From Gammaproteobacteria bacterium (GTDB taxonomy: Bacteria > Pseudomonadota > Gammaproteobacteria > GCA-001735895), in contig JBNKUM010000085.1 of NCBI GenBank assembly GCA_050298595.1, positions 83,971 through 147,970 on the forward strand: a stretch of 64,000 nt of DNA, written 5' to 3'. The notes below the pieces were generated by a model, which worked only from the letters and a program-made list of their open reading frames with translations, was not told the origin of the DNA and searched no databases. Numbering within the stretch: position 1 is the first letter of the stretch; each line of letters starts with the position of its first letter. The translations under genes and the position numbers were made by a program. Below, piece after piece: positions 8,926-52,988 of the stretch.

Positions 8926-10476
8926 TTGAGCGGGCTAATCAAATCTACCTTTTCTGTGGGCTCCATGACCCTGTTATCCAGAGTACTGGGGCTGGCCAGG
9001 GATATTATCATTGCGCGCTTTTATTCGGCTGGGCTGGAGGCTGACGCCTTCTTTGTCGCGTTTAAAATCCCTAACTTCATGCGTCGCCTGTTCGCTGAAG
9101 GGGCTTTCTCGCTGGCCTTCGTGCCGGTACTCACCGAGTATAAAAACACCCGTACATTAGATGAATGTCGAAACCTGATAAATCAGATCAGCGGCACCCT
9201 GGGTTTATTACTGATTGCGATTATGACCATAGGGGTTGTGGCTTCTCCCGCTCTGGTTTACGTGGTTGCCGCTGGTTTTGTCAAACAGCCAGAGAAGTTC
9301 CAGCTTACCGCTGATCTGCTGCGCATGACCTTTCCTTATATATTTCTGATCTCCATGACTGCAATGGCCGGTGGCATTTTGAATACCTGGAAAAAGTTTG
9401 CTGCACCCGCGTTTACTCCGGTATTACTCAATCTAAGCCTGATTGGCTGTACGCTATGGCTGGCACCTGTTATGGATATTCCGGTACACGCCTTGGGCTG
9501 GGGAGTGTTAATCGCCGGTGTTGTTCAGCTCAGCTTCCAGTTGCCTTTCTTATATAAGCTCGAACTACTACCCAGGCCCGTATGGGCATGGCATCAGCCC
9601 GGCGTTCAAAAGGTCATCAAACTGATGATTCCCGCACTATTCGGCTCATCGGTAGCGCAGATAAATTTATTGTTCGATACCTTTATTGCTTCCTTTCTGG
9701 TCACCGGCTCAGTGTCCTGGCTGTATTACTCGGACCGCCTACTGGAATTCCCATTGGGTGTGTTTGGTATCGCTCTGGCAACCGTGGTGTTACCCAATCT
9801 GTCTGAATCGCACTTTAGTCAGGGCAAGGATCATTTCAACGGCATTCTGAACTGGGCGGCTCAGCTTTCGCTGATGATCTCCTTGCCCGCCGCAATCGGA
9901 CTGATGTTACTCGCGCAACCTATCCTTGCCACACTATTCCAGTATGGAGCATTCGATGAATCAGATACCTTAATGTCGAGCATGAGTCTGATGGCCTACA
10001 GCCTTGGCCTGCCGGCATTTATTCTGATCAAGATTCTGGCGAATGCCTTTTACTCACGGCAGGATAGCAAAACACCGGTTCGCATAGGTATTTTTGCCAT
10101 GCTGGTGAATATGGTGCTGAACGTCATCTTCGTGCTGTTACTGATGAACTACAGCGAGATACCTGCACATGTCGGGCTGGCACTTGCCACCACCGGTTCA
10201 GCCTACTGTAATGCCGGGCTACTAGCCTATAGCCTGAGGAAACAGCAATATCTAACCTTAAGTCGAAGCTTTTTGATCACCGTACTGAAGGTTCTGCTTG
10301 CTACTGCAGGCATGGCACTGCTACTGTTTTACATCGCTGCCGATAGCGCGCAGTGGTCACAGTGGCTGTGGGCTCAAAGGTTGCTACATTTATGCCTGTT
10401 GATTATCCCCGCCATCTTGTGCTACACCCTGCTACTCTGGATAATGGGAATTCGTCGTTCCCATCTAGTACATTAA
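8926..10476 (+). CDS. murJ: Lipid II flippase MurJ (MviN)
   Basis: 516 aa polytopic membrane protein, LLSRVLGLARDIIIARFYSAGLEADAFFVAFKIPNF... Divergent from rpsT as in E. coli. Confidence 0.9.
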   Translation: MSGLIKSTFSVGSMTLLSRVLGLARDIIIARFYSAGLEADAFFVAFKIPNFMRRLFAEGAFSLAFVPVLTEYKNTRTLDECRNLINQISGTLGLLLIAIMTIGVVASPALVYVVAAGFVKQPEKFQLTADLLRMTFPYIFLISMTAMAGGILNTWKKFAAPAFTPVLLNLSLIGCTLWLAPVMDIPVHALGWGVLIAGVVQLSFQLPFLYKLELLPRPVWAWHQPGVQKVIKLMIPALFGSSVAQINLLFDTFIASFLVTGSVSWLYYSDRLLEFPLGVFGIALATVVLPNLSESHFSQGKDHFNGILNWAAQLSLMISLPAAIGLMLLAQPILATLFQYGAFDESDTLMSSMSLMAYSLGLPAFILIKILANAFYSRQDSKTPVRIGIFAMLVNMVLNVIFVLLLMNYSEIPAHVGLALATTGSAYCNAGLLAYSLRKQQYLTLSRSFLITVLKVLLATAGMALLLFYIAADSAQWSQWLWAQRLLHLCLLIIPAILCYTLLLWIMGIRRSHLVH

Positions 10477-10495
10477 TTATTAAGCCTTCCAACGC

Positions 10496-11443
10496 ATGAA
10501 ATTAATTCGAGGATTACATAACCTGACCAACCCATTACCGAGCTGCGTAGCCACTATTGGCAATTTTGACGGGCTGCATCTGGGGCATCAGCATGTCATA
10601 AACCAGCTTAAAACAGTCGCTGAAATCAAGAACCTGCCGACCGTAGTGGTGGTGTTTGAACCACAACCGGTTGAGTTTTTTGCCCCTGAGCAGGCACCCT
10701 TGCGCCTGGCGCGTTTCCGCGACAAAATCATCCGCATGGGAGACATGGGTATAGACTACATGATCTGCCTGCATTTCAATCAGCAACTGGCTAATCTGAG
10801 CGCTGAACAATTCGTCAGCGATATTCTGGTAAAGCGGATGAATATCCGACACCTGGTGATTGGCGATGATTTTCGTTTCGGCAAGGATCGTAGCGGTGAC
10901 TTTAATTATCTGCGTGAACGCGGTCATCAGCATCACTATGAAGTAGAAAATACACACACGCTTCTTATGGATGGTGAGCGTGTCAGCAGCACCCGCATTC
11001 GAGAATGCCTTGCAAAAGACGATATGTTATGTGCTCGCCAGTTACTGGGGCGTCCCTACACCTTATCGGGCAAGGTCGCGCATGGGAAACAGCTCGGACG
11101 GCAACTGGGATTTCCAACCATTAATATAAAAACCGGCAATCGCCCTATCGCCGTGCATGGAATATTTGCGGTCTTGGTCAAAGGGTTGGATAATCGCATA
11201 CTGCGTGGCGTGGCCAGCATAGGCACACGCCCCACAGTAAATGGTGTAGGAACCATTCTGGAAGTTCACATCCTGAATTTTTCCGAACAGATATACGGTC
11301 GTAGTGTGGATATTGAAATACTGCATAAACTACGCAACGAACAGAAATTCGATTCATTAAATGCCCTGACGGTTCAAATCAATCAGGACATCAATGAAGC
11401 AAAAACCTTTTTTGAAGATAACGAGATACTGGAAACAAAGTGA
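10496..11443 (+). CDS. ribF: Bifunctional riboflavin kinase / FMN adenylyltransferase
   Basis: [15 protein letters not shown]... nucleotidyltransferase motif and C-terminal riboflavin-kinase domain. Precedes ileS. Confidence 0.9.
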
Positions 11444-20864: not shown

Positions 20865-21168
20865 TAGAATAAACTTGAAATAAATCTCAACAACTATGGT
20901 ATGTCGATTAAGAAAAAGAGCGTTAGTGTAACCAGAAGAAATATAAATGGCAGCATATATCTGGCGTTCCTTTTTTCTGACTCAACCGATACTCAATATC
21001 ATCAACCTGACGATGCATATCCCGCATCACCTTTTTAGCGACTCGTCGGCGCACAATGTGATCAACCACTACCTAAAAACTGCTCTAAAACAAAGCTCAC
21101 TCAGTTCAGTTAACGTTCATCAAGCATCGATAGACTAGTCCCGAACCTAAACTAAACGGGAGTTCAAA

Positions 21169-21504
21169 ATGAAACTACAAACACTAAAAATAGTTAAACT
21201 TTCCGCCCTGGTACTGGTTGCCAGCCTTGCCGCCACTGTACCTGTTAAATCTATGGCACATGACAGCGGCCATATCAATGCTGAAATTCTGATAAATCTT
21301 TCACCATTACTACATACACATCAAGTTCATCAATATGGACACAGCACTTATTACCCGCGTCAAATCGAACGTCATCATAAACACCATAAAGCCAGATACT
21401 ATGATCGCAGATATCACCATGCAAGGCATCATCAGCCAGAACGCATAGTGCGCAGCTATGACCGTTACTCGGATAATAAAATTATCCGCAAGCACTTTAA
21501 ATAA
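21169..21504 (+). CDS. Small secreted His/Arg/Tyr-rich basic protein
   Basis: Signal peptide MKLQTLKIVKLSALVLVASLAATVPVKSMA, then HDSGHIN...HTHQVHQYGHSTYYPRQIERHHKHHKARYYDRRYHHARHHQPER (about 20% His in the mature part). SD-like GGGAG upstream. Confidence 0.5.
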   Translation: MKLQTLKIVKLSALVLVASLAATVPVKSMAHDSGHINAEILINLSPLLHTHQVHQYGHSTYYPRQIERHHKHHKARYYDRRYHHARHHQPERIVRSYDRYSDNKIIRKHFK

Positions 21505-21521
21505 ATCCTGAAGAGGCGCGA

Positions 21522-22268
21522 GTGATGAAGACTTTAAAAATTATACTGCTGTGTCTATTACCTTCGCTGGCATTTGCTGGCACTACAGAAACTGTATCGG
21601 TACGCAGTGTAGGCAAAATGATAACTGACGATAGTATTAATCTTACTCAACAGCTTGAATTAAGCCCAACAATCAGCCTGCAGAAACCATCTTCATCGCA
21701 AGGCACTGATTTATTATCTCTGCGTCAAAGCAACCGAATAACAATCAGTTATTCAGATCCTGTCCAGTTTGACCTGTTCGATGCCTGGGTAGACCTGAGT
21801 GGAGACCTTGATCAGGATGGTTACTATCATAATATCAAGGTCAGCTTTGATGCCGACGTCAATACACAAACCACCGAGGCTGTGTATGCAAAAATCTATC
21901 TCAGTTATCAGGGCGGCCCCTGGTTTCAATTGAGTACAACAGATTTATTCGAAATTTACAGTAACTCCGCTGATGACAGTTTCGAGATACTCAATGAGCT
22001 GGAACAGGGTTTTGAACCTGGTGATTACGAAGTGTTGATAGAATTGCACAGCCTCTACCATAGCGGTATTGTGAGTCAGAGAATTGTGCAACTTGACCGC
22101 TCGGGTTATCTGATCACTCTGGAAGATTTTGATCACGATCAACCTGCTTATACTGTCGAGTATGTCGATAGTTATGGATATGCGGTTTCAGGAAGTTTTT
22201 CTATTACAGGATTATTACTGATAGGTTTGTTAGGCGTGATTAAATTTCGATTTTCAAACAGGCATTAA
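21522..22268 (+). CDS. Secreted acidic protein with C-terminal hydrophobic segment and basic tail (sorting-signal-like)
   Basis: Signal peptide MMKTLKIILLCLLPSLAFAG. Asp-rich repeats (DLSGDLDQDGYYH). C-terminus ...SGSFSITGLLLIGLLGVIKFRFSNRH. Starts 18 nt after the His-rich gene, so probably co-transcribed. Confidence 0.5.
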   Translation: MMKTLKIILLCLLPSLAFAGTTETVSVRSVGKMITDDSINLTQQLELSPTISLQKPSSSQGTDLLSLRQSNRITISYSDPVQFDLFDAWVDLSGDLDQDGYYHNIKVSFDADVNTQTTEAVYAKIYLSYQGGPWFQLSTTDLFEIYSNSADDSFEILNELEQGFEPGDYEVLIELHSLYHSGIVSQRIVQLDRSGYLITLEDFDHDQPAYTVEYVDSYGYAVSGSFSITGLLLIGLLGVIKFRFSNRH

Positions 22269-22611
22269 AATACCCCAGCACTGTGCATACATGAATAAGG
22301 GAGGGACATGCACAGCCTGGAGTAAAGGGTGAAATCGGTATTCTATAAAATTGATCAGCTCAACTTTTAAAAGGTATAGTGAGCTATTCAATTTAAAATA
22401 ATTCTTCAACTTTAATCACTGGCATCCTTGCCAGTTCTAAAACGCCTCTCCATCGATGCTAAGAATAGGAAAAAACCAGAACCTGGAGAAGTGACAAATT
22501 GTCGCACTCACCCTAAAGCAGTTGATTTGGCGAGTAAAAAACAGGCCTTCAGGGTGATTTAGATACGCGTTGCGGCTACACTACCCCTTGTATTAATTCA
22601 GAGTAGTATTT

Positions 22612-23898
22612 ATGTCGAGCAACGGCATCCAGAGTTCAGCAAGAATACTTCGCCAGCTATACCTGCTACGTAATGTCACCATTATTTTCATTTCACTGAT
22701 GGTGATACTGGCGTTCTACGGCCTCAATATAAACCTGCCTGTCATTCCATTAAGCATCATCTTACTGATTATGGCTGGAACCAATCTACTCACCCGTTTG
22801 ATGATTGACCAGAATAAAGCCATCAGCCAGCGTGTGATTTTTATTCAGTTGATGATCGAGATTATTTCCTTTTCTCTAATCCTTTACTTTGCCGGTGGCG
22901 CCACCAACCCTTTAACCTTCTTTTATCTGATCCCGTTGGCGATTGCTGCCACCGTGATCCCCGGCCGCTACACCTGGACACTCACCCTGTTTACCATCGC
23001 TCTGTATAGTCTGTTACTGGAGTTCTATATCCCGCTTTCCTATCAGATGCATGATCACCAGCATATGCAAGCTGGTGATAGCCAGTTCAATCAGCATGTA
23101 CTGGGCATGTGGTTTGGTTTTCTGGTCAGCGCCTTACTGGTGACCTGGTTTATCACCTATCTGGCTCAGGAACTTAAATCTCGAGACATCGCCATCAACG
23201 AGGCACGTCAAAGAGAGTTACGCGATCAGCAAATGGTCACTCTGGGCACACTGGCCGCTGGTACTGCACATGAGTTGAGTACCCCATTAGCCACACTGGC
23301 TATAGTCAGTGGTGAGCTGACCGATGGTTTCGACCCAGTGAAGCATGAAGAATTGTTTGAGAACCAGCAAATCCTGCGCGACCAGATAGCACGCTGTAAG
23401 GATATTCTGTCTGTATTATCTGAATCTGCCGGTGAGGTGCGAGCCGACGAGGGTTATTTGATACCTGCCGAAGACTTTATCGACCAAACCATTCATCACT
23501 GGCAAAGCCTGCGTGATGGCATGCTGTTCGAGCTTAACAAAGCAGCTATGCCACACCATGCTCGTCTATTATTCGATAAAACCATCAGCCAGTCAGTGAT
23601 CAATCTGCTCAACAATGCAGCCGAAGTATCGACCGACCCGATACTGATAAACACCCAGATCCAGCAGGATATGCTCGAAATTGAGATTATCGATAATGGC
23701 CCAGGCATGAGTGACGAGCAAATAGCAATGGCCGGTGAAACCAGTTTTTCCGATAAACCCCACGGCATGGGCATAGGGTTATTCCTGGCTATCAGCACCC
23801 TGCGCCGGTGTGGTGGTAGTGTCCAGTTTGAACGCTTAACCCATCGGGGTACCTCTACCCTTATCACTATGCCCCTAATTATATCCGAGTCAACATAA
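22612..23898 (+). CDS. Redox-responsive sensor histidine kinase, RegB/PrrB/RoxS family
   Basis: Multi-TM N-terminus. H-box TLAAGTAHELSTPLATLAIV matches the RegB signature (AHELGTPL). HATPase motifs (NLLNNAAE, DNGPGM, GMGIGLFL). Confidence 0.8.
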   Translation: MSSNGIQSSARILRQLYLLRNVTIIFISLMVILAFYGLNINLPVIPLSIILLIMAGTNLLTRLMIDQNKAISQRVIFIQLMIEIISFSLILYFAGGATNPLTFFYLIPLAIAATVIPGRYTWTLTLFTIALYSLLLEFYIPLSYQMHDHQHMQAGDSQFNQHVLGMWFGFLVSALLVTWFITYLAQELKSRDIAINEARQRELRDQQMVTLGTLAAGTAHELSTPLATLAIVSGELTDGFDPVKHEELFENQQILRDQIARCKDILSVLSESAGEVRADEGYLIPAEDFIDQTIHHWQSLRDGMLFELNKAAMPHHARLLFDKTISQSVINLLNNAAEVSTDPILINTQIQQDMLEIEIIDNGPGMSDEQIAMAGETSFSDKPHGMGIGLFLAISTLRRCGGSVQFERLTHRGTSTLITMPLIISEST

Positions 23899-24443
23899 TG
23901 GAAAATAACCCAGACCAGGCCAACCTGTTAGTGGTTGATGATGATGAAGTGCTTTGTCATGTGCTCTCCAGAGCGCTGACTAAAAGACATTTTAATGTGC
24001 AGGTTGCTCACAGCCTTGACCAGGCCCTGATTAGCGCTCATCAAAACCCTCCCGAATTCGCCGTGGTAGATTTACGTATAGGCACTGATTCAGGCTTAAG
24101 CGTGATCAAGGAACTGGTCGCAACTGAGCCAGGCATTCGCATCGTGGTGTTAACGGGATACGCCAGTATCAGTACTGCGGTCGAGTCCATAAAACTGGGT
24201 GCCCAACATTACCTGACCAAACCCGCTGAAGTGGATGACATTATCCAGGCTTTTTATCACGAAGAAGGTCGTACCGAGATCGATATCTCTCCACAGCCCA
24301 TGTCGGTTAAACGCATGGAGTGGGAGCATTTACAGAAAGTCCTGAATGATAATGATGGTAATATTTCAGCCGCTGCACGCGCCATGGGAATGCATCGCAG
24401 AACCCTGCAAAGAAAACTCGCCAAGAAGCCAGTAAAGCAATAA
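23898..24443 (+). CDS. Response regulator, RegA/PrrA/RoxR family
   Basis: Receiver domain (LLVVDDDEV...VVDLRIG). C-terminal HTH NISAAARAMGMHRRTLQRKLAK is nearly identical to the invariant RegA HTH. Translationally coupled to the kinase gene. Confidence 0.85.
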   Translation: MENNPDQANLLVVDDDEVLCHVLSRALTKRHFNVQVAHSLDQALISAHQNPPEFAVVDLRIGTDSGLSVIKELVATEPGIRIVVLTGYASISTAVESIKLGAQHYLTKPAEVDDIIQAFYHEEGRTEIDISPQPMSVKRMEWEHLQKVLNDNDGNISAAARAMGMHRRTLQRKLAKKPVKQ

Positions 24444-29867: not shown

Positions 29868-30645
29868 TTTTCTATTGCGCGCCATCCTCGCCGGTTGCGG
29901 AGTTGCCATAGTCGCCGCCCCGCTGGGCAGTTTTGTGGTATGGCGTCGCATGTCCTATTTCGGTGACACACTGGCACATTCCGCCCTGCTGGGCGTTGCA
30001 CTGGGGTTTCTATTTGATATCAATCTCAATCTTGCTATTGTTTGCGTTGCTGTCATCATAGCTATGCTAATGCTTGGCCTGCAAAATCGCCGCCTGCTAG
30101 CGAGCGATACATTACTCGGCATACTTTCGCATGGCACCCTGTCGATAGGACTGGTCGTTATAGCGACTCAAGACGATCTGCGCGTCGACCTGATGGGGTA
30201 TCTATTTGGCGATATTCTAGCGGTTACCCCGACTGATTTACTTTGGGTATGGGGAGGCGGCCTGGTGGTGCTCGGGCTTTTGCTAAAGATATGGTACCCC
30301 TTACTCTCCCTGACCGTTCACCAGGACCTGGCTCAGGTAGAAGGGGTTGCGGTTAACAAGGTACAGATGATTTTCATGCTGATGATCGCACTGGTGATTG
30401 CCATATCGATGAAGATCGTTGGGGTTTTATTGATCACCTCAATGCTCATCATCCCGGCTGCTGCCGCGCGTCGCTTTAGTCAGACCCCCGAGCAGATGGC
30501 CCTGATTGCAGCATTGACTGGAGTAACCTCGGTAGGATTAGGATTAACCGCCTCGTGGTTTTGGGATAGCCCGGCTGGGCCATCGATTGTGGTTGCCGCC
30601 ACCTTGCTATTCGTAAGTAGTCAATTATTCAACCGTGTCGATTAG
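29860..30645 (+). CDS. znuB: Zinc ABC transporter permease ZnuB
   Basis: 261 aa, 8 TM, ABC-3 family permease. Overlaps the znuC stop. Confidence 0.85.
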
Positions 30646-30741
30646 TTCATCTTTGATTCAGCAACATGCACCTACTATCTACTCGCTGTAAGCTGCCGAC
30701 TATGACAAAATCCGCCCTTTAACCCGAAACCCAGATTACTC

Positions 30742-45547: not shown

Positions 45548-48500
45548 CTACTTACACACCAGCCTGGGAGCGCGCTTTTTCTCGTCATCTTCTTCATCCT
45601 CAGTTTCAATACTGGCAACCTTGTCAACAAAGCTCATTGTCTTAACCATCTGTTGATGATCTAGCTCTCCACTATCAAACAACGTTTCAAGCAGATTCGA
45701 AACTTTATCCATATCTTCATTAGAAACCACAACCGTATCTTTAAATGTAAACGTCCCCTGATTGATTATTCTGAAAGGATTATTGATTTGTAAAATAGAA
45801 GTATCGGGAGAAAACCAGTTAACCGTCCCGGTAGGTGTGATCAGCCAGTCAGTACCTAAAACTCCACTAACCAAATCTACGCGACCAGAAGTTGTCAAAC
45901 CTGTACCATTAATAGTTCCCGTATCCCACAACATGTCGCCCGCATAGTTTAGGTTATTAGCTTTAAGCGTCCCTCCTACAAGTTCTATCCTGGCAATTTG
46001 GAGTGGCGTATTGGCAACTAAAGACGACCCTGATGAAATCGATATACTTCCTCCACCGGTCAAGCTTGACATAGCATTAACAGTTAACTCAGTGTTATTT
46101 AGAGCTAAAACTTTACCTTGCTGCACCTGTATTGATGAAGCCTGGACAGCAACTAACAGAGGATTTTGTGTATTGCTACCTATAAAACTACCCCCATCGA
46201 CGATTACGGATGTAGATGCAGAAATCACCAGATTCCCTTCAGCCTGAATTTCGCTACTACCCGACATCGTCACGCTCGTTGGCAAGACAGGAATGTTCTG
46301 CACTCTGGAAACCACTCCATCAACCAACTCCCAGTTTATGGTCGTATCGTAAACAAGGGGATGAATATCTACAGCAAACTCAGAAGTATTGTTTAAGGAT
46401 AAAAGTCCTGAACCTAAAAACTGGGCGTTACTGCTGGCTGATGACAGGGAGACACCATCTGATAAGGAAAGTTGTGCGCCATTCGCCCAGGACATAATGC
46501 CTTTATTGTCTATAGAGCCTGTACCGGTAAAGACATTAGTTCCACTACTGGCATCTATCGCAAACAATGCATTGTTCACCAGATTGCCATTTATCTGAAA
46601 GGGAGTACCTACACTGGTTTGAATTTCACCCCAGTTAACAGCGTCAGCAGACAGGGTGCCCTGATCAAGTTTAAGCGTTGCACCTAAATTATATAAAACA
46701 CCTGTACCCGTTCTGGACACTAAGGCATCGGATGCAGAAATGGCTAACCCACCACTACCATTGAACGGATCAAGTATAAAAGCATTGCCACTTATATCAA
46801 GGCTACCACCAGCGCCTACTTTGATCTGGCCATGCGCCTGAATTCCTCTAACAGCAGCAGTAGAGGTGATATCAACAACTGGGGTAGTTGTTCCATCAAT
46901 AAATACATCCGTGCTTGAATCAGGCGCCACCGTCGCAGTAAGCCCAGTAGAGAGATCCATCCAGTTATCTAGATCACTCCAACTGGTTGGAGAAGTAGAT
47001 GATAACCCCGTCCATTGATAGATATTACTGGTATCTATGCTACCAATTGTATAACTGGCCGTATCAGCAATAACTGATCCATAATCAACAGTGCCTGCTG
47101 AAGTTGTCGCAATAGGGTCAACAATGGTGTCAAAGCCACTCCCTGAAAAACAACCAGTACCCGTGCAACCAACTACCGATACAGTGTTGCTAGAACTATC
47201 AGCAGCTAGTACAGCTGAGCTATCTTGCCAGTTCAAAATCAAATCACCACCATTAATAGCAACAGTATTCGCACTCACATAACTTGACACCATGCCATCT
47301 GATGCCGCCAGGACTGAATATAAGCCCCCAGAATTAAACACTAGATCACCATTAATAGTTAATGTGCCTGGGCTTGTTGAGTCATCTCCACCAGCGATCA
47401 CGCCACCATTCACGGTTACACTGCTGTTTATAGCAGCCCATCCAGAACTACTGAGACCTGAACCAGGTCCGAGCTCAAGCACTCCTCCAGTTAAAGTCAG
47501 CGTATTGTTATCCTGTATGTCGATCCATCCTGGATTTTTGAAATTTATAAACTGAGTATCTATAGTCGAGATAGAAGTAGTAAAGCTATTAAGATTAATA
47601 TTCCCCTTATTATAAAACTGCCCTGTACCTGTGATACTGGCATTCTCCATATTGATATCACCGCCATTGGTCAACATTGAAGTGGCGTCTAAATCTAGTG
47701 TTGTAAACTGCATATCGATCGAATGTCCCTGCTGCACATTCCAGCTGGTATTTTGTAGTTTTAGAGCACCGCCTCCGGTTATTGATGTATTACCATTTAC
47801 CATTAAGCTACCAGCATTGGTAGCAAGATCTACATTAAAACTTGCGGTTGAAGCAAACGTTTTAAAGTTAACCAGACCTGAGCCATCATTATCTATGTCT
47901 GGATTCAATATAAGGTTTAATGCACCGGTGCCTGTTGCAGAGATAGTGAGATTACTAGCAGCTGCATCAAAAATAATGTCATTGTGTGCATTTAACGTAA
48001 GTGAAACAGCGCTACTCGATAGAGAATTGATATCCGCCAGGATGGTAATATCACCTGCTTGACTATTACCCCCAGCTGTAGCTGTTGAAACAGTGACATT
48101 TGTGCCTGCGTTGAGAGCAGCTTCTATAGATGCGACACTCAAATAAGCACTGTCACCCGTTGAAATAAAATCAGGGTCACCTGTGATGAGAGCATCTGCA
48201 GTCGAACTAATTGTTATATTATTTGGATCAATCAACCACTCACCTGCATTACCATTAAGTGCCGAGGCATCCGGCACCGATGTAATATCCAGATAGTGTT
48301 TACCAGAGGTTTCTATAAACCCACCATCACCACTAACCGCACCACCACGCGCAGTTACTTCACCATGTACGTGCACATCTTTCTCTGCAAATACGATGAC
48401 TTTGCCTCCATTTCCTGTCGTGTCGGCATCAGCATTGACACTGGCACCGGCAGCTATCGTGGTTGAGCTTGCATTGTGGATCTCGGGATTCAACCCCTGC

Positions 48501-49414
48501 TGATCACCACCGATAAGAATCTCTCCACCAGCAGTATCACCAGATGCATTGATATTCGCACCCTCATCAATGTTGACTGTATCGCCAAGTATCTCGATAT
48601 ACCCGCCCTGAATACCTGAGGCGTCTACGCGGCCACTAACCTGATTGGTAGCTTTGGCAACCAGGCTGATACTTCCATCAGCATTCTGCACCAGACCTCC
48701 AGCACGAATTGAACCACTGTGCTTCAAGGCCCCTGCAAACAAACTGGCACTACCCTGATTCGCTAAAATTTTACCCAGATTGGTCACCGTGTTTTCACTT
48801 CCAGTAACTTCAAACTGTATGGCCGGATTCTCCAGACTGCTGATGGTAATCGATTGCCCTGCCGCCAGTATGATATTTCCATTATCGACTTCGATAACGC
48901 CACCGTTTTCGATATTCGGTGCGATCAATACAATATTGCCATTATCTCCTGCATGGATATAGCCCTGATTGCTAATTCCAGCTGAGCTATCACCTTCAAA
49001 CTTTAGATTTCCATTCAGGTAATCACTATCTGTTATATTCAATGTGGAAGCGAAAAAACCGGCTGTATTGATTTGCGCACCAGCCCCAACAAGGAGGCCA
49101 TGTTGATTAATCAGAAATACCTTACCATTTGAATTCAAATTACCCAGCAACTGGCTAGGGTTATTGGATATCACGCGATTTAATACGGAACTCGCCGCAG
49201 AGGGCTGAATAAAATTGGTGGTTTGTCCGGCGCCGATATTGAACGATTGCCAGTTGATGATGGCATTATTACTGTTCGTAACATTTAAAACATTTACACT
49301 GGGATTAGAAAAGGTAGCCGAGCCGTGAACAACCTGCCCACCCGCAGGGTTGGCGTTGGCCATTTGACTACTCAGAATCAGACTGATGGTAAAAGCTAGC
49401 GTATTGTATTTCAT
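45548..49414 (-). CDS. Two-partner-secretion exoprotein (TpsA; filamentous-haemagglutinin-type beta-helical protein)
   Basis: Signal peptide then TPS domain (NPAGGQVVHGSATFSNP...AIINWQSFNIGAGQTTNF...SAASSVLNRV...NGKVFLINQHGLLVGAGAQIN). About 1100 aa of Gly/Asn/Thr/Ser-rich beta-helix repeats. Acidic C-terminus. Confidence 0.8.
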   Translation of the reverse strand: MKYNTLAFTISLILSSQMANANPAGGQVVHGSATFSNPSVNVLNVTNSNNAIINWQSFNIGAGQTTNFIQPSAASSVLNRVISNNPSQLLGNLNSNGKVFLINQHGLLVGAGAQINTAGFFASTLNITDSDYLNGNLKFEGDSSAGISNQGYIHAGDNGNIVLIAPNIENGGVIEVDNGNIILAAGQSITISSLENPAIQFEVTGSENTVTNLGKILANQGSASLFAGALKHSGSIRAGGLVQNADGSISLVAKATNQVSGRVDASGIQGGYIEILGDTVNIDEGANINASGDTAGGEILIGGDQQGLNPEIHNASSTTIAAGASVNADADTTGNGGKVIVFAEKDVHVHGEVTARGGAVSGDGGFIETSGKHYLDITSVPDASALNGNAGEWLIDPNNITISSTADALITGDPDFISTGDSAYLSVASIEAALNAGTNVTVSTATAGGNSQAGDITILADINSLSSSAVSLTLNAHNDIIFDAAASNLTISATGTGALNLILNPDIDNDGSGLVNFKTFASTASFNVDLATNAGSLMVNGNTSITGGGALKLQNTSWNVQQGHSIDMQFTTLDLDATSMLTNGGDINMENASITGTGQFYNKGNINLNSFTTSISTIDTQFINFKNPGWIDIQDNNTLTLTGGVLELGPGSGLSSSGWAAINSSVTVNGGVIAGGDDSTSPGTLTINGDLVFNSGGLYSVLAASDGMVSSYVSANTVAINGGDLILNWQDSSAVLAADSSSNTVSVVGCTGTGCFSGSGFDTIVDPIATTSAGTVDYGSVIADTASYTIGSIDTSNIYQWTGLSSTSPTSWSDLDNWMDLSTGLTATVAPDSSTDVFIDGTTTPVVDITSTAAVRGIQAHGQIKVGAGGSLDISGNAFILDPFNGSGGLAISASDALVSRTGTGVLYNLGATLKLDQGTLSADAVNWGEIQTSVGTPFQINGNLVNNALFAIDASSGTNVFTGTGSIDNKGIMSWANGAQLSLSDGVSLSSASSNAQFLGSGLLSLNNTSEFAVDIHPLVYDTTINWELVDGVVSRVQNIPVLPTSVTMSGSSEIQAEGNLVISASTSVIVDGGSFIGSNTQNPLLVAVQASSIQVQQGKVLALNNTELTVNAMSSLTGGGSISISSGSSLVANTPLQIARIELVGGTLKANNLNYAGDMLWDTGTINGTGLTTSGRVDLVSGVLGTDWLITPTGTVNWFSPDTSILQINNPFRIINQGTFTFKDTVVVSNEDMDKVSNLLETLFDSGELDHQQMVKTMSFVDKVASIETEDEEDDEKKRAPRLVCK

Positions 49415-49442
49415 AATGATGGCTCCTCTGGTCTACAGTAAA

Positions 49443-50909
49443 TTACTGCAGACGGCATTCAAACTCCTCTTTATCACTACCTTTGGCACCAAACAAATTA
49501 ATCTTTTTCTGCATTTTCAGTGACAACTGTGAAGGCACAGGGATCTTGTCAAACTTCTGGAAAGGCGGAACAAAGTTCAGGCGTATGGTCTTCCCGGCAA
49601 GCCCTGCTAAACCAGCCTCACCCTTACCCAGATTAACAACACTGCCATCGACACCCTCAACCGCAACATCACCGTCTCGCACATTAACATATAACCCCGG
49701 CTCAATATTCTGTCTATCTGAGCCACTAAACAGATCATCTCTAATTGTGATTCGATCAGGTCTGGGCGCATTACCCATGGTACGAAGATGGACCGGAAAA
49801 TCAGGTATGATCACCGGTTTGGTGAATCCATTTTTGACAAATGCTGCCTTACCATTTTCCAGTAGCATTTTGCCGCCTTCAAATTGCAACTCTATGGCAC
49901 CACTCCACACCCTGGCATACATGCCACTGCCGCTTAAGGCATAAGCTGGTTTCAAAAAGAATTGCAACAGTTTTGCAACCACCGTTTCACTCAGTGGGTC
50001 CTGCAATGCCGTGTTGTCCACACAATCACCATCACAGGCCAGGTCAAAGCCAGTACCACGGATACCTATGGTTGCTGTTGGCGTTGCCACTCGATAGGAG
50101 CGCTCATTCAAGCGCCCAATAGCGCCAGTGATCAGACGCAAGCCACCTCGAATAAACCTTAAAAATGCATTATTCTCTGCTGGCACTTCAGGCTTATAGT
50201 AATGTTCTTCAATCTTAAAGGCTGAAGACGGACTCATCGTGATACGGCTTTTATCGTTAAACACTAAAACAGCAAACGATTTAATTCCGGTTTGTATTTG
50301 ATCAAGCTCGTATACTGCTGCACCAGTCGATAAGGGGCGTGATTTATTATTAGCGTCCAGTGCACTGGCCTTACCCTGCATTAAAGCAATACGGCCGATA
50401 ACCTTTGATTCATTCTGCGAATTCTTATTCAGTGCTCGATTTTCTTCATCACACTCAGCACTTTCACACAGTCGGGCGTCAAATTCAGTACCCCGAATAC
50501 CGATGGTGGCTACTCGAGTATTGATACGAAAAGCACTGGGGCGACTTTTACTGATGAGACCTGTTATGGCTCGAAAGCCGCCTCGAATCAAATTCATCAA
50601 TGCGCTTTCACTACCCTTAGTCGTATTTACGTCCTCAATTTTAAACGTTGTATTAGGTCGAAGCGTCATGCGCGTACCGTCTTCCAGTTTGATCACGGCA
50701 AAGCTGCTAGTGCCTGTATTCAAAGTTTCACCTTTATACAATGACCCACCTTTGCCCAGAATCTGGAGAGCATCATTGCCAACCTGCCCTGTTAGCACTC
50801 CTCGGGTATAAGCCACCTCACCTACTTCAGTCGCGGCAAATACAGAACCTTGCAGGCACAGTAAAAATGAGAAAAACAAACTACGGTGAATCATGCTTTT
50901 TCTATCCAT
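49443..50909 (-). CDS. Secreted tandem FecR-domain protein encoded between tpsB and tpsA
   Basis: Signal peptide. Two FecR-type domains (FAVIKLEDGTRMTLRPNTTFKIED...IGIRGTEFD and FAVLVFNDKSRITMSPSSAFKIEE...IGIRGTGFD). Cys pairs CESAECDEE and CDGDC. RGGxRxITGxI motifs. Confidence 0.7.
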   Translation of the reverse strand: MDRKSMIHRSLFFSFLLCLQGSVFAATEVGEVAYTRGVLTGQVGNDALQILGKGGSLYKGETLNTGTSSFAVIKLEDGTRMTLRPNTTFKIEDVNTTKGSESALMNLIRGGFRAITGLISKSRPSAFRINTRVATIGIRGTEFDARLCESAECDEENRALNKNSQNESKVIGRIALMQGKASALDANNKSRPLSTGAAVYELDQIQTGIKSFAVLVFNDKSRITMSPSSAFKIEEHYYKPEVPAENNAFLRFIRGGLRLITGAIGRLNERSYRVATPTATIGIRGTGFDLACDGDCVDNTALQDPLSETVVAKLLQFFLKPAYALSGSGMYARVWSGAIELQFEGGKMLLENGKAAFVKNGFTKPVIIPDFPVHLRTMGNAPRPDRITIRDDLFSGSDRQNIEPGLYVNVRDGDVAVEGVDGSVVNLGKGEAGLAGLAGKTIRLNFVPPFQKFDKIPVPSQLSLKMQKKINLFGAKGSDKEEFECRLQ

Positions 50910-50917
50910 AGCCTGCC

Positions 50918-52465
50918 TCAGAATCGGTAAATCAAGTTAAAGTGGGCCTTATCGTCACCATCCTGGTTGATCGTGGCATCAGGACCACCACCTTTATTGA
51001 TGACAGCATAATCAAGCGCAACACTTAGCTGTTCTTTCCAGCTCCAGCGTAACCCGACTCCATAGGAAGAAAGATCGTAATCTCCACTGTCGTTAAATTT
51101 GACCTTAGCCTGATCAATAAAAACCAGATAGCGCATATTTGCAAAGGCCGGGGTCCAGATTTCAAAAGAAGTTTGATAGCCGCTATCACCGATTACGGAA
51201 CGTTCTTCAAAACCACGCAGCGTAGAACTACCACCCACACCAAATTGTTCGCCTGAAATCAGTAAATCACTACTACTTTGCCCACTTAAACCCGCGTGCA
51301 AGAGCCAGTCTTTAGAGAAAATCAGATCATAAGCAAGGTTGTATCGTATAGCAGTCCAGTCATTTTTGGCGCCTGTACGGAGCAGTTCATAATCCTCATC
51401 ACTATTGTTACTGCCAGAATCAATATTCAAATCATAGAAAAAATCACCACTAATGGAGCTTGATTTGGCTGTATAGGTAAAACCATAACCCAGTTCTAGA
51501 GGAAAACTCCCTACATCGGCATTTGATACGTTCCCATTAATATCAATCTCATTCTCGAAGAGTTTATTTTGAAACCCAACAGACCACTGGTGATTAAAGT
51601 TGGTATCGGTCAACATCGGACGCGAATAAGTAAAACCAAATACCGAGCCCTTTCCGGTAATAGCTACACCTCCACCCACTTCACCAGAATTGACCTCCGA
51701 ATCTGAAAATATAAAATCCAGATTGGCACCATGTGAATATAGCGGTATATGGTAGCTCAGACCAAACTGATTGGTGGCATCCGGGTCTTCTGGAGCTACG
51801 GTCAAGGTTGCGGTTATCGTGTGATCGCGGTTGAATAGATTGCCATTCTGATATCCCAGAGTACTGCGGAATTCACTGGTATCTTTGCTACCAGTATTAT
51901 CCAGCGTCAGGAAAAAAAGCTGCGGGTTACGATCATTGACGGTTAAATTAGCATCAATGGTATCTCCCTCGTCACCTTCCTTAAACTTAAGCACCATATT
52001 CTTGGAAGCGTGATTATTAGCAAGTTTCAAAGAACGCGACAATTCCCTGGTATTTGGTGTACTACCAACACTTAACTCAGGAAGAGAGCTACGGATATTC
52101 CGTTCATTAAAGAACTTATTACCCGATATATTTATCGCCCCGATAGTAAAATGAATAACATTCAACTCGACGGTACCAGAGATTAATTGCTGAGGAGGCA
52201 GGGACACTCGGTGAAAACTATAACCCTGTTTAATAATTTCCTGTTCCAGGGCATCAGCCGCAGCAGATAACCCATCCAGACCATAATGCTCACCTAGATA
52301 GGATTGCAGTACTTTTTGCGCTTTGTCCGCTATTGGGTTATCACCAGTGACGTCAAAGCTAGAAACCGTAAAACGCATTGGCGTATAAGTAGTTTGGGCA
52401 TACCCTACCATTGGCAACAGAGTAACAAAAAATAAAACAAAGGCACTTCCCTGAGGTATTCGCAT
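50918..52465 (-). CDS. TpsB outer-membrane transporter (ShlB/FhaC/HecB family, POTRA + 16-strand barrel)
   Basis: Signal peptide at the internal start MRIPQGSAFVLFFVTLLPMVGYA. POTRA-region motifs. C-terminal beta-barrel ending in ...FNLIYRF (terminal aromatic residue). Confidence 0.8.
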   Translation of the reverse strand: MRIPQGSAFVLFFVTLLPMVGYAQTTYTPMRFTVSSFDVTGDNPIADKAQKVLQSYLGEHYGLDGLSAAADALEQEIIKQGYSFHRVSLPPQQLISGTVELNVIHFTIGAINISGNKFFNERNIRSSLPELSVGSTPNTRELSRSLKLANNHASKNMVLKFKEGDEGDTIDANLTVNDRNPQLFFLTLDNTGSKDTSEFRSTLGYQNGNLFNRDHTITATLTVAPEDPDATNQFGLSYHIPLYSHGANLDFIFSDSEVNSGEVGGGVAITGKGSVFGFTYSRPMLTDTNFNHQWSVGFQNKLFENEIDINGNVSNADVGSFPLELGYGFTYTAKSSSISGDFFYDLNIDSGSNNSDEDYELLRTGAKNDWTAIRYNLAYDLIFSKDWLLHAGLSGQSSSDLLISGEQFGVGGSSTLRGFEERSVIGDSGYQTSFEIWTPAFANMRYLVFIDQAKVKFNDSGDYDLSSYGVGLRWSWKEQLSVALDYAVINKGGGPDATINQDGDDKAHFNLIYRF

Positions 52466-52988
52466 GACTATAAATTCTTCATTCTCGAATTTAAAATCAT
52501 ATCGACTGGTGATTACATTGTCCATGATAAACTGGCTCAGGACATGCTATTTAGAGTACTTTCTATTAACTTGGACTTAATAAAGGATACTCTGTCTAGA
52601 ATTATCATACCCACATGACAAATCTAAATAGTAAAACCATTTTGCTGCGCATAAACATGCTTTAACGCAGTAATAAACATACTTTGCCATAACTGTTTCG
52701 GCTTTGCGCTGACTCTCAAAACCTCTCAAACACTTCGATTGATACAGGTAATCACCAGCATCCAATAATAGCCCAGCCTGCAGATCCAGAGCCTGAAACA
52801 TTTTTACCAATAACAGCGATAGCGCTATAGAAGGAACATCTAGTGCACTTTTCCAGGATCCTGTCGGATTTAGGGTGAATCTACTGCGGAAAAGGCATTT
52901 TGGCCAACAATCCGATCATTTTCGTTAAATAGGCTCACTATTCGCCTCAAATGATCGAAATATTTCGACTCAAAATACCGTTCCTTCG

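Follow-up and report, generated by a model that had tools for sequence, protein, structure and literature searches.

What do two adjacent genes for exported proteins of opposite charge, one histidine-rich and the other ending in a tail that resembles a sorting signal, do together in the envelope of a gammaproteobacterium? The question is raised by a 64,000-nucleotide stretch of contig JBNKUM010000085.1 (positions 83,971 to 147,970, forward strand) of the Gammaproteobacteria bacterium assembly GCA_050298595.1, referred to below as the window, in whose own numbering all positions are given. An initial annotation of the window, made from the letters alone, had singled out the two genes as a co-transcribed secreted pair. 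The follow-up reported here establishes them as a conserved two-gene unit, composed of an acidic member of the choice-of-anchor H family and of a specific basic partner, and preceded by a conserved promoter box; as to their role, the explanation that we favour, tentatively and with somewhat less than even confidence, is that of an inducible, membrane-tethered acidic/basic envelope protein pair binding cations or metals.

A Two-Gene Unit Conserved across Many Species

The first gene of the pair (21169..21504, + strand), described from its open reading frame (ORF), a family hidden Markov model (HMM) and the ratio of nonsynonymous to synonymous substitution rates (dN/dS), encodes an exported protein of 111 amino acids (aa) rich in His, Arg and Tyr. 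The second, on the same strand, encodes a choice-of-anchor H protein and extends to 22268 from either a GTG at 21522 (248 aa) or an ATG at 21525 (247 aa), the latter being the start used in NCBI assemblies; its description relies on the NF038116 model, on 56 database homologs and on an AlphaFold2 prediction. Both products have signal-peptide-like N-termini, in agreement with the secreted pair of the initial annotation, and co-transcription is probable, given that the genes share one strand, that the gap between them is 17–20 nucleotides (nt), with AAGAGG preceding the acidic-gene start, and that gaps are short in nearly all homologous loci (−4 to +45 nt, mostly −4 to +28 nt).

The acidic protein served as query for the collection of 82 related loci from many gammaproteobacterial species. 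The small-gene family HMM detects the partner in 70 of them (70 of the 76 with enough upstream DNA to be testable), always immediately upstream of the acidic gene; at these loci the partner ORF lies on the same strand and encodes 87–145 aa, with a signal peptide and a His/Arg/Tyr-rich composition. Of the twelve loci where the partner is missing, six have no upstream DNA, and the other six (two from Paraglaciecola, one from Woeseiaceae, three unclassified) have upstream DNA and no detectable partner. The initial annotation, which had put forward the conservation of the pair as a point for comparison, had regarded absence of the His-rich ORF from related strains as the sign of a sequence free of selection; the ORF is kept in the relatives, and comparison with four of them gives dN/dS values of 0.10–0.24 for the small gene and of 0.09–0.20 for the acidic one. 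Both ORFs are real genes under purifying selection, and the small protein is a specific partner of the acidic protein, co-inherited with it across many species. The conserved unit is the pair alone, since the other neighbours are housekeeping genes, or RegB/RegA or LEA_2 lipoprotein genes limited to single clades (see below). Opposite charge is a property of all the pairs, the median isoelectric point (pI) being 10.4 for the small protein and 4.1 for the acidic one.

The Acidic Protein Belongs to the Choice-of-Anchor H Family

On the NF038116 "choice-of-anchor H" model, whose cut-off is 53 bits, the acidic protein scores 114.1 bits (E 4.4e-33), over model positions 2–124 of 124; on the strength of this profile match, it is a full-length member of the family. 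All 31 aligned homologs match the model as well. The two traits that accompany membership, a signal-peptide-like N-terminus and a C-terminal sorting-type anchor, are both present in the sequence and correspond to helices 2–16 and 227–244 of the predicted structure. The signal peptide is placed at aa 1–19, with predicted cleavage between SLAFA and GT. The AlphaFold2 model (predicted local distance difference test, pLDDT, 85; predicted template-modelling score, pTM, 0.74) consists of the signal helix, a small N-terminal element (23–53), a low-confidence linker, a beta-sandwich (82–199), a disordered linker (about 205–225) and the C-terminal helix; NF038116 and the model together delimit a choice-of-anchor H domain with a beta-sandwich core at aa 83–206 (21768..22139, +).

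The protein had been described initially as Asp-rich and as carrying DLSGDLDQDGYYH repeats. Its strong acidity is borne out by an ectodomain net charge of −24 and a pI of 4.05, whereas the Asp content is modest (8.5% overall, 10.3% of the ectodomain); as to the repeats, the motif occurs once, as a single DxDxDG loop. This loop, D95-L-D97-Q-D99-G100 (21804..21821, +), lies between model strands 82–92 and 103–112, and the motif suggests calcium-type binding. Residues D95, D97, D99, G100, D110, D112, D152, E174 and Gly224 are invariant in the alignment.

Little else is attached to the family. The acidic protein has no match in Pfam, a profile search of PDB sequences returned nothing, the 56 database homologs are unnamed save for two labelled choice-of-anchor H, and no mention of "choice-of-anchor H" was found in the searched literature; it is a named family without a described function, and both the His-rich partner and the promoter box lie outside its definition.

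A Divergent Tail of the Sorting-Signal Type

The acidic protein ends in SGSFSITGLLLIGLLGVIKFRFSNRH, a tripartite tail (22188..22265, +) made of SGSFS, ITGLLLIGLLGVI and KFRFSNRH, as delimited by alignments, by scans of isolated tails with the GlyGly-CTERM model TIGR03501 and by the model helix 227–244. A small-residue motif, a transmembrane stretch and basic residues thus follow one another at the extreme C-terminus, which is the architecture of GlyGly-CTERM signals, and the initial view of the tail as an element of the sorting-signal type holds. Among 79 family members surveyed in species-representative genomes, most tails carry HGGGG, YGGGG, HGGGS or HGGS before the helix, followed by the hydrophobic stretch and by 2–8 basic residues; in the clade of the window the corresponding sequences are VSGSFS, VSGGFS, GAGSFS, HAGSFT or HTGSFS. 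Gly224 is invariant in the 56 homologs, there is no Cys in the window tail, and the latter aligns column for column with the canonical GlyGly-CTERM tails of its homologs, the first Gly being replaced (V-S-G-S). The tail had been said to match none of the named motifs exactly; through its HGGGG and HGGS homologs, it aligns with the GlyGly-CTERM class.

TIGR03501, whose cut-off is 15.5 bits, matches 6 of the 31 aligned homologs. On isolated tails, it gives 27.0 bits for the Paraglaciecola type and 16.9 for a 48%-identical ortholog from the RegB/RegA-linked clade to which the window belongs; below the cut-off are orthologs at 15.4 bits and, closer to the window, relatives at 14.0 and 12.8. Comparison with models of C-terminal sorting domains, which the initial annotation had proposed as a check, thus gives a mixed outcome, orthologs passing the model and the window copy remaining without a match. 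Haft and Varghese, who give the signature as "often SGGS", curated such tails by four criteria: one Gly or more, absence of Cys, a transmembrane stretch and the presence of a basic residue (PMC3237569); the window tail conforms to them. Because homologous GG tails align with it, orthologs score above the cut-off and the curation criteria apply, the window tail reads, by sequence comparison, as the divergent end of a GlyGly-CTERM (rhombosortase) signal continuum.

A plainer alternative is that, in the clade of the window, the GG motif has decayed to SG, rhombosortase no longer acts, and the protein simply keeps its own helix as an inner-membrane anchor, with partner and regulation unchanged; we consider this possible, and rather doubtful. 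Several observations speak for it and, by the same token, against a processed signal. The window tail has no two consecutive glycines; the window protein, whether whole or as tail alone, has no TIGR03501 match at E <= 10, nor has the tail of its nearest relative, so that the scores fall steadily towards the window (27, 16.9, 14.0, 12.8, none). The Pfam gene lists covering the 64-kb window include no member of the Rhomboid family, and GlpG of E. coli, used as phmmer query, had no match either in the window or in 79 related loci, which were covered to about 6 kb from the acidic gene. Against the decay of the signal stands the retention of G-S-F-S and of the invariant Gly in orthologs of only about 45% identity, beside a linker that is hypervariable; conservation in such a position argues for a recognition motif over a mere anchor. 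Also against it are the ortholog at 48% identity, which belongs to the same RegB/RegA-linked clade and passes the model, the curated criteria, which ask for one Gly only, and the observation that rhombosortase genes are usually far from their targets where a genome has several of these (PMC3237569).

Of the two types of processing that had been considered initially, the rhombosortase type is retained as a candidate and the exosortase type is excluded, as is an LPXTG signal: neither the PEP-CTERM (exosortase) nor the LPXTG (sortase) motif occurs in the window tail, which has no PEP-CTERM match, and one relative has a sub-threshold LPXTG_anchor match. Elsewhere in the family, a large subclade (loci L017, L027–L038, L041–L043 and others) has a highly conserved acidic-protein tail of the form GGGS/GAGS-x3-LL-x-FFLIIQVVIAARGALALSPCK..., whose helix includes a Gln and is followed by a Cys; this tail, which has no TIGR03501 match, may be a distinct variant of sorting signal.

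The Small Protein Defines an Unannotated His-Rich Family

The N-terminus of the small protein comprises a basic n-region and a hydrophobic core, with predicted cleavage between VKSMA and HD; the signal peptide would span aa 1–30 and the mature chain would start at His31-Asp. The composition given in the initial annotation, about 20% His with many Tyr and Arg, is accurate: the mature chain has 19% His, 12% Arg and 10% Tyr, and the 20-residue segment quoted there is present, with 40% His. The mature pI is 10.05, and the charge counted as K+R−D−E is +8, to which 15 His are to be added. The family shares a common plan, namely, a signal-peptidase site of the form A-x-A, a mature chain with His as its first or second residue (HD, HH, DH or NH), a hydrophobic segment of about 13–15 residues, a His/Tyr/Arg/Gly-rich stretch of variable length, and a C-terminal motif R-R-x-S-x-S-H-G-(G)-Y followed by a basic tail; RSYDRYSDNK is the version of the motif found in the window. 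AlphaFold2 gives a signal helix and a helix at 36–48 only, the remainder having pLDDT below 50, and the protein is accordingly predicted to be mostly disordered apart from that helix. The hydrophobic segment of the window copy, INAEILINLSPLL, was considered as a transmembrane anchor and rejected, being too polar, too short and modelled as a low-confidence helix.

Searches of Pfam-A and NCBIfam with the small protein and eight diverse relatives returned no family at E <= 1 except noise. A profile search of a 5.8-billion-protein set yielded 58 relatives, all of 93–115 aa and all unnamed or "hypothetical", and HMMER, run exhaustively over 1.84 billion cluster representatives, yielded only 90 at E <= 1e-3, nearly all of 87–127 aa. 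The small protein belongs to an unannotated family dedicated to the acidic partner, and no description of it was found in the literature and databases searched.

A cationic, His/Tyr/Arg-rich chain with a short amphipathic helix also recalls a histatin-type toxic or antimicrobial peptide, for which the acidic anchored protein, made in step with it and obligately linked, could serve as neutralising carrier or immunity partner. This appears quite improbable: the pair lies among housekeeping genes and looks vertically inherited, with neither the polymorphism nor the mobility of toxins; no export or processing machinery is encoded nearby; purifying selection is steady rather than diversifying; and six lineages keep the acidic protein alone.

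A Conserved Promoter Box before the Pair

Upstream of the small gene lies a tandem direct repeat with an 11-bp period, GTTCAGT-TAAC-GTTCAT (GTTCAGTTAACGTTCA; about 21104..21120, +), at a −35 position; it is followed, 9–10 nt past the second repeat, by a −10-like hexamer, TAGACT (21131..21136, +), whose family consensus is TAAGCT. Across the family, the box has the consensus RTTCAGC-N4-RTTCAG, some 64 nt before the ATG of the small gene; the exact pattern TTCA-N7-TTCA is found 61–68 nt upstream of that ATG in about 40 of 62 loci, and positions 1, 2 and 6 of the −10-like hexamer (T, A, T) are conserved at fixed spacing in 35–37 of 42 seed sites. A 34-nt position weight matrix (PWM) built from the box sites, with which the window site scores 23.9 bits, was used to scan 1.54 Mb on both strands at a threshold of at least 12 bits. 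There were 71 matches. Of these, 60, from 58 of 61 loci, precede the small ORF by 40–90 nt, and almost all the others likewise stand before the module, at mis-called starts, at small ORFs missed by the first filter, or directly upstream of partner-less acidic genes such as the one from Paraglaciecola.

The box resembles an OmpR/PhoB-type response-regulator site and is a candidate for one, in a promoter of the activator type, because class II activation by regulators of this kind has the same layout, with two half-sites repeated at 11 bp and the second one ending some 10 nt from the −10; direct-repeat half-sites, period, −35 position and distance from the −10 are all found in this putative promoter, as read from sequence only. 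The RTTCAG half-site is not identical to the characterised ones (TTAAG for BqsR, CTGTCAT for PhoB), and the literature search on the TTCAG repeat was uninformative. Among characterised sites, the nearest one found, in which TTAAG-N6-TTAAG overlaps the −35 of activated promoters, is the box of Pseudomonas aeruginosa BqsR/CarR, an OmpR-like regulator that responds to Fe2+/Ca2+ (PMC4358008, PMC13522522); the two have in common pentamer direct repeats, a 6-nt spacer, overlap with the −35 and four of five bases per half-site.

Identification of the box as a Pho box was rejected, since the half-sites differ and canonical Pho boxes are separately present in two loci. These Pho boxes, CTGTCAT-TTAA-TTGTCAA at L066 5020 and L077 4865, lie upstream of a conserved 96-aa Cys-rich protein, whose gene immediately precedes the pair in 17 Thiodiazotropha-type loci. 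The only clear extra copy of the pair's own box in the related loci is at L074:10110, 66 nt upstream of a 143-aa ORF (10176–10607) which has a signal peptide, a Gly/Tyr/Asp/Lys-rich low-complexity sequence with xGYxxGY repeats and only weak, sub-threshold matches to Yae1_N and FliH; this site suggests a regulon encoding several secreted low-complexity proteins. The window itself has a second PWM match, of 17.4 bits (30645–30678, +), where GTTCATCTTTGATTCAGC precedes a correctly spaced TACTAT. This match directly follows the stop codon of znuB, some 190 nt ahead of 30838, the called start of lptD, and its geometry relative to lptD differs from that seen at the pair; it may mark a further member of the regulon or have arisen by chance, the simple pattern being expected 0.5 times per window.

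What the Pair May Do

In VesB of Vibrio cholerae, rhombosortase cuts after a Gly, which is then joined to a glycerophosphoethanolamine-containing moiety; cleavage, lipid attachment and surface display that depends on the type II secretion system are established only for this protein (PMC6219818). The GlyGly-CTERM signal suffices for membrane association, and translocation across the outer membrane requires a second secretion signal (PMC13393428). If the VesB mechanism is carried over by analogy to the window protein, as we infer, the favoured explanation takes the following form. Rhombosortase would cut the acidic protein after the invariant Gly224, and the new C-terminus would be joined to a glycerophosphoethanolamine lipid, so that the acidic domain stays tethered to a membrane; it would remain periplasmic unless the protein also has a type II secretion signal, in which case it would be displayed at the cell surface. 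The polycationic partner would dock on this polyanionic domain through its helix, its motif and its charge, and the two would form a tethered layer that binds or buffers divalent cations, with the acidic domain holding Ca2+ and the His-rich chain holding transition metals. The transcriptional activator would be a response regulator of the OmpR/PhoB family, encoded elsewhere in the genome and acting at a site that resembles the Fe2+/Ca2+-responsive BqsR/CarR box.

A fuller version of the same explanation would make of the pair a new regulon and envelope system of sediment and sulfur-oxidising Gammaproteobacteria, in which a His-rich disordered family, held at the membrane by a lipid-tethered, Ca2+-binding acidic beta-sandwich, serves as a buffer or scavenger that responds to metals or cations, under a BqsR-like two-component system sensing Fe2+, Ca2+ or a related cation; stated with all these parts, it is speculative, and we regard it as no better than a doubtful possibility.

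Besides the points already raised about the tail and the rhomboid gene, several findings weigh against the favoured explanation. The net charges of the partners show no co-variation (62 pairs, Spearman rho about 0), and no metal-homeostasis gene is consistently linked to the pair across loci; because of these two results, confidence in the functional part is low. Foldseek against the PDB gave for the acidic-protein model only generic sandwiches of the Ig-like, fibronectin type III (FnIII) and LEA14 types, with template-modelling (TM) scores below 0.5, a weak match being the plant LEA14 (1yyc). Finally, the half-site is TTCAG here, unlike that of the BqsR/CarR box, and no OmpR-family regulator is encoded nearby, none having been found within about 6 kb of the pair in any locus.

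The extreme opposite charges and the Tyr/Gly/His-rich composition also suggest a structural role, in which a Tyr/His/Arg-rich polycation and a Ca2+-binding polyanion condense, in the manner of a coacervate, into an extracellular or periplasmic material such as an adhesive, a matrix or an envelope coat associated with minerals or granules. The secreted Gly/Tyr/Asp/Lys-rich low-complexity protein driven by the same box in one genome (L074 10176–10607) would be in keeping with this, as would the gene for a lipoprotein with an LEA_2 (late embryogenesis abundant/WHy) domain, which follows the pair in the same orientation, some 70 nt further on, in 23 Thiodiazotropha/Sedimenticolaceae loci (L045–L081; Pfam E 3e-16), and the fact that many hosts of the pair are sediment bacteria or sulfur-oxidising symbionts. 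Neither experiment nor homology links the pair to a known matrix, adhesin or sulfur-globule protein, however, and the protein is small and single-domain; such a material role is, in our judgement, unlikely.

The cation-binding envelope pair that we favour has partial counterparts among known systems. With the GlyGly-CTERM substrates (VesB, VesA, VesC, Xds and VC1485 of Vibrio cholerae; TIGR03501), the acidic protein shares a signal peptide, a disordered linker and a tripartite C-terminal signal, and its homologs carry the canonical GG in the same columns and pass the model; unlike them, it has SGS in place of GG and is not recognised by the model, and its passenger is a small, acidic, non-enzymatic beta-sandwich rather than a protease or nuclease. 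A dedicated basic partner gene, present here, is not reported for such substrates in PMC3237569, PMC6219818 or PMC13393428.

SilE/PcoE and ZraP are small periplasmic His-rich metal-binding proteins with a signal peptide, partly or fully disordered, and the mature chain of ZraP starts with His-Gly-Gly-His. The small protein of the window is likewise small, His-rich, endowed with a signal peptide and predicted to be disordered; it is not related to them in sequence, Pfam and NCBIfam giving no match, it lacks both Met-rich motifs and the LTxxQ fold, and its partner is an anchored acidic protein and not an efflux or sensor system.

No description of the SG signal variant, of the His-rich partner family or of the RTTCAG box was found in the searched literature. 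Choice-of-anchor H is thereby given a partner to which it is obligately linked, a promoter element of defined sequence and, at Gly224, a candidate processing site. The SG variant, occurring inside a family of clear GG signals, is a natural test of rhombosortase recognition, and the box is specific enough for genome-wide scans, which could reveal the regulator and its regulon in uncultured sediment bacteria and in the symbionts of lucinid clams.

Genomic Neighbourhood

Directly downstream of the pair, on the same strand, the window carries RegB/RegA-like genes (22612–24443, +). The adjacency noted in the initial annotation is real, with two restrictions: the genes are RegB/RegA-like only, and the synteny is limited to the clade of the window, in 15 loci if same-species copies are included and in 13 at species level, counting the window. 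RegB and RegA are the best NCBIfam matches of the two neighbours, at scores below the equivalog cut-offs (203.7 versus 350 and 182.8 versus 250 bits), which points to a divergent gammaproteobacterial version of the system. The same-strand adjacency, repeated in 12 other species-level loci, and the identity of these best matches would suit a pair that acts as an accessory of this redox two-component system, for instance as a periplasmic co-sensor or as a target operon. This is, nevertheless, very improbable: the adjacency is absent from all the other clades that have the pair and the same box, and a gap of 343 nt with a promoter-like site separates the pair from regB. The sites reported for RegA-type regulators with a Fis helix-turn-helix (HTH) are GC-rich dyads, and the box, being a direct repeat, is unlike them; RegA is also unlikely as the regulator of the box, since the latter is present in clades with no adjacent RegB/RegA.

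The other neighbours across loci are housekeeping genes: murJ, ribF, ileS, lspA, ispH, tripartite ATP-independent periplasmic (TRAP) transporter genes, znuABC and lptD. The hairpin that had been noted after the acidic gene, with an 8-bp stem and a 19-nt loop (22281..22315, +), is present, but it folds no better than shuffled sequences (z = −0.55) and is not a supported feature; as a terminator, it was rejected on that value, on the lack of a T-run and on a terminator scan that did not call it.

Two further loci of the window may be mentioned. A two-partner secretion (TPS) locus on the − strand (45548–52525) comprises a ShlB/TpsB transporter (50918–52525), a FecR-domain protein (49443–50909) and a 1288-aa exoprotein with a TPS domain (45548–49414). 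An IS200/IS605-type Y1 transposase gene (PF01797; 4171–4863, +) lies between AstE/AspA-like and class II aldolase genes.

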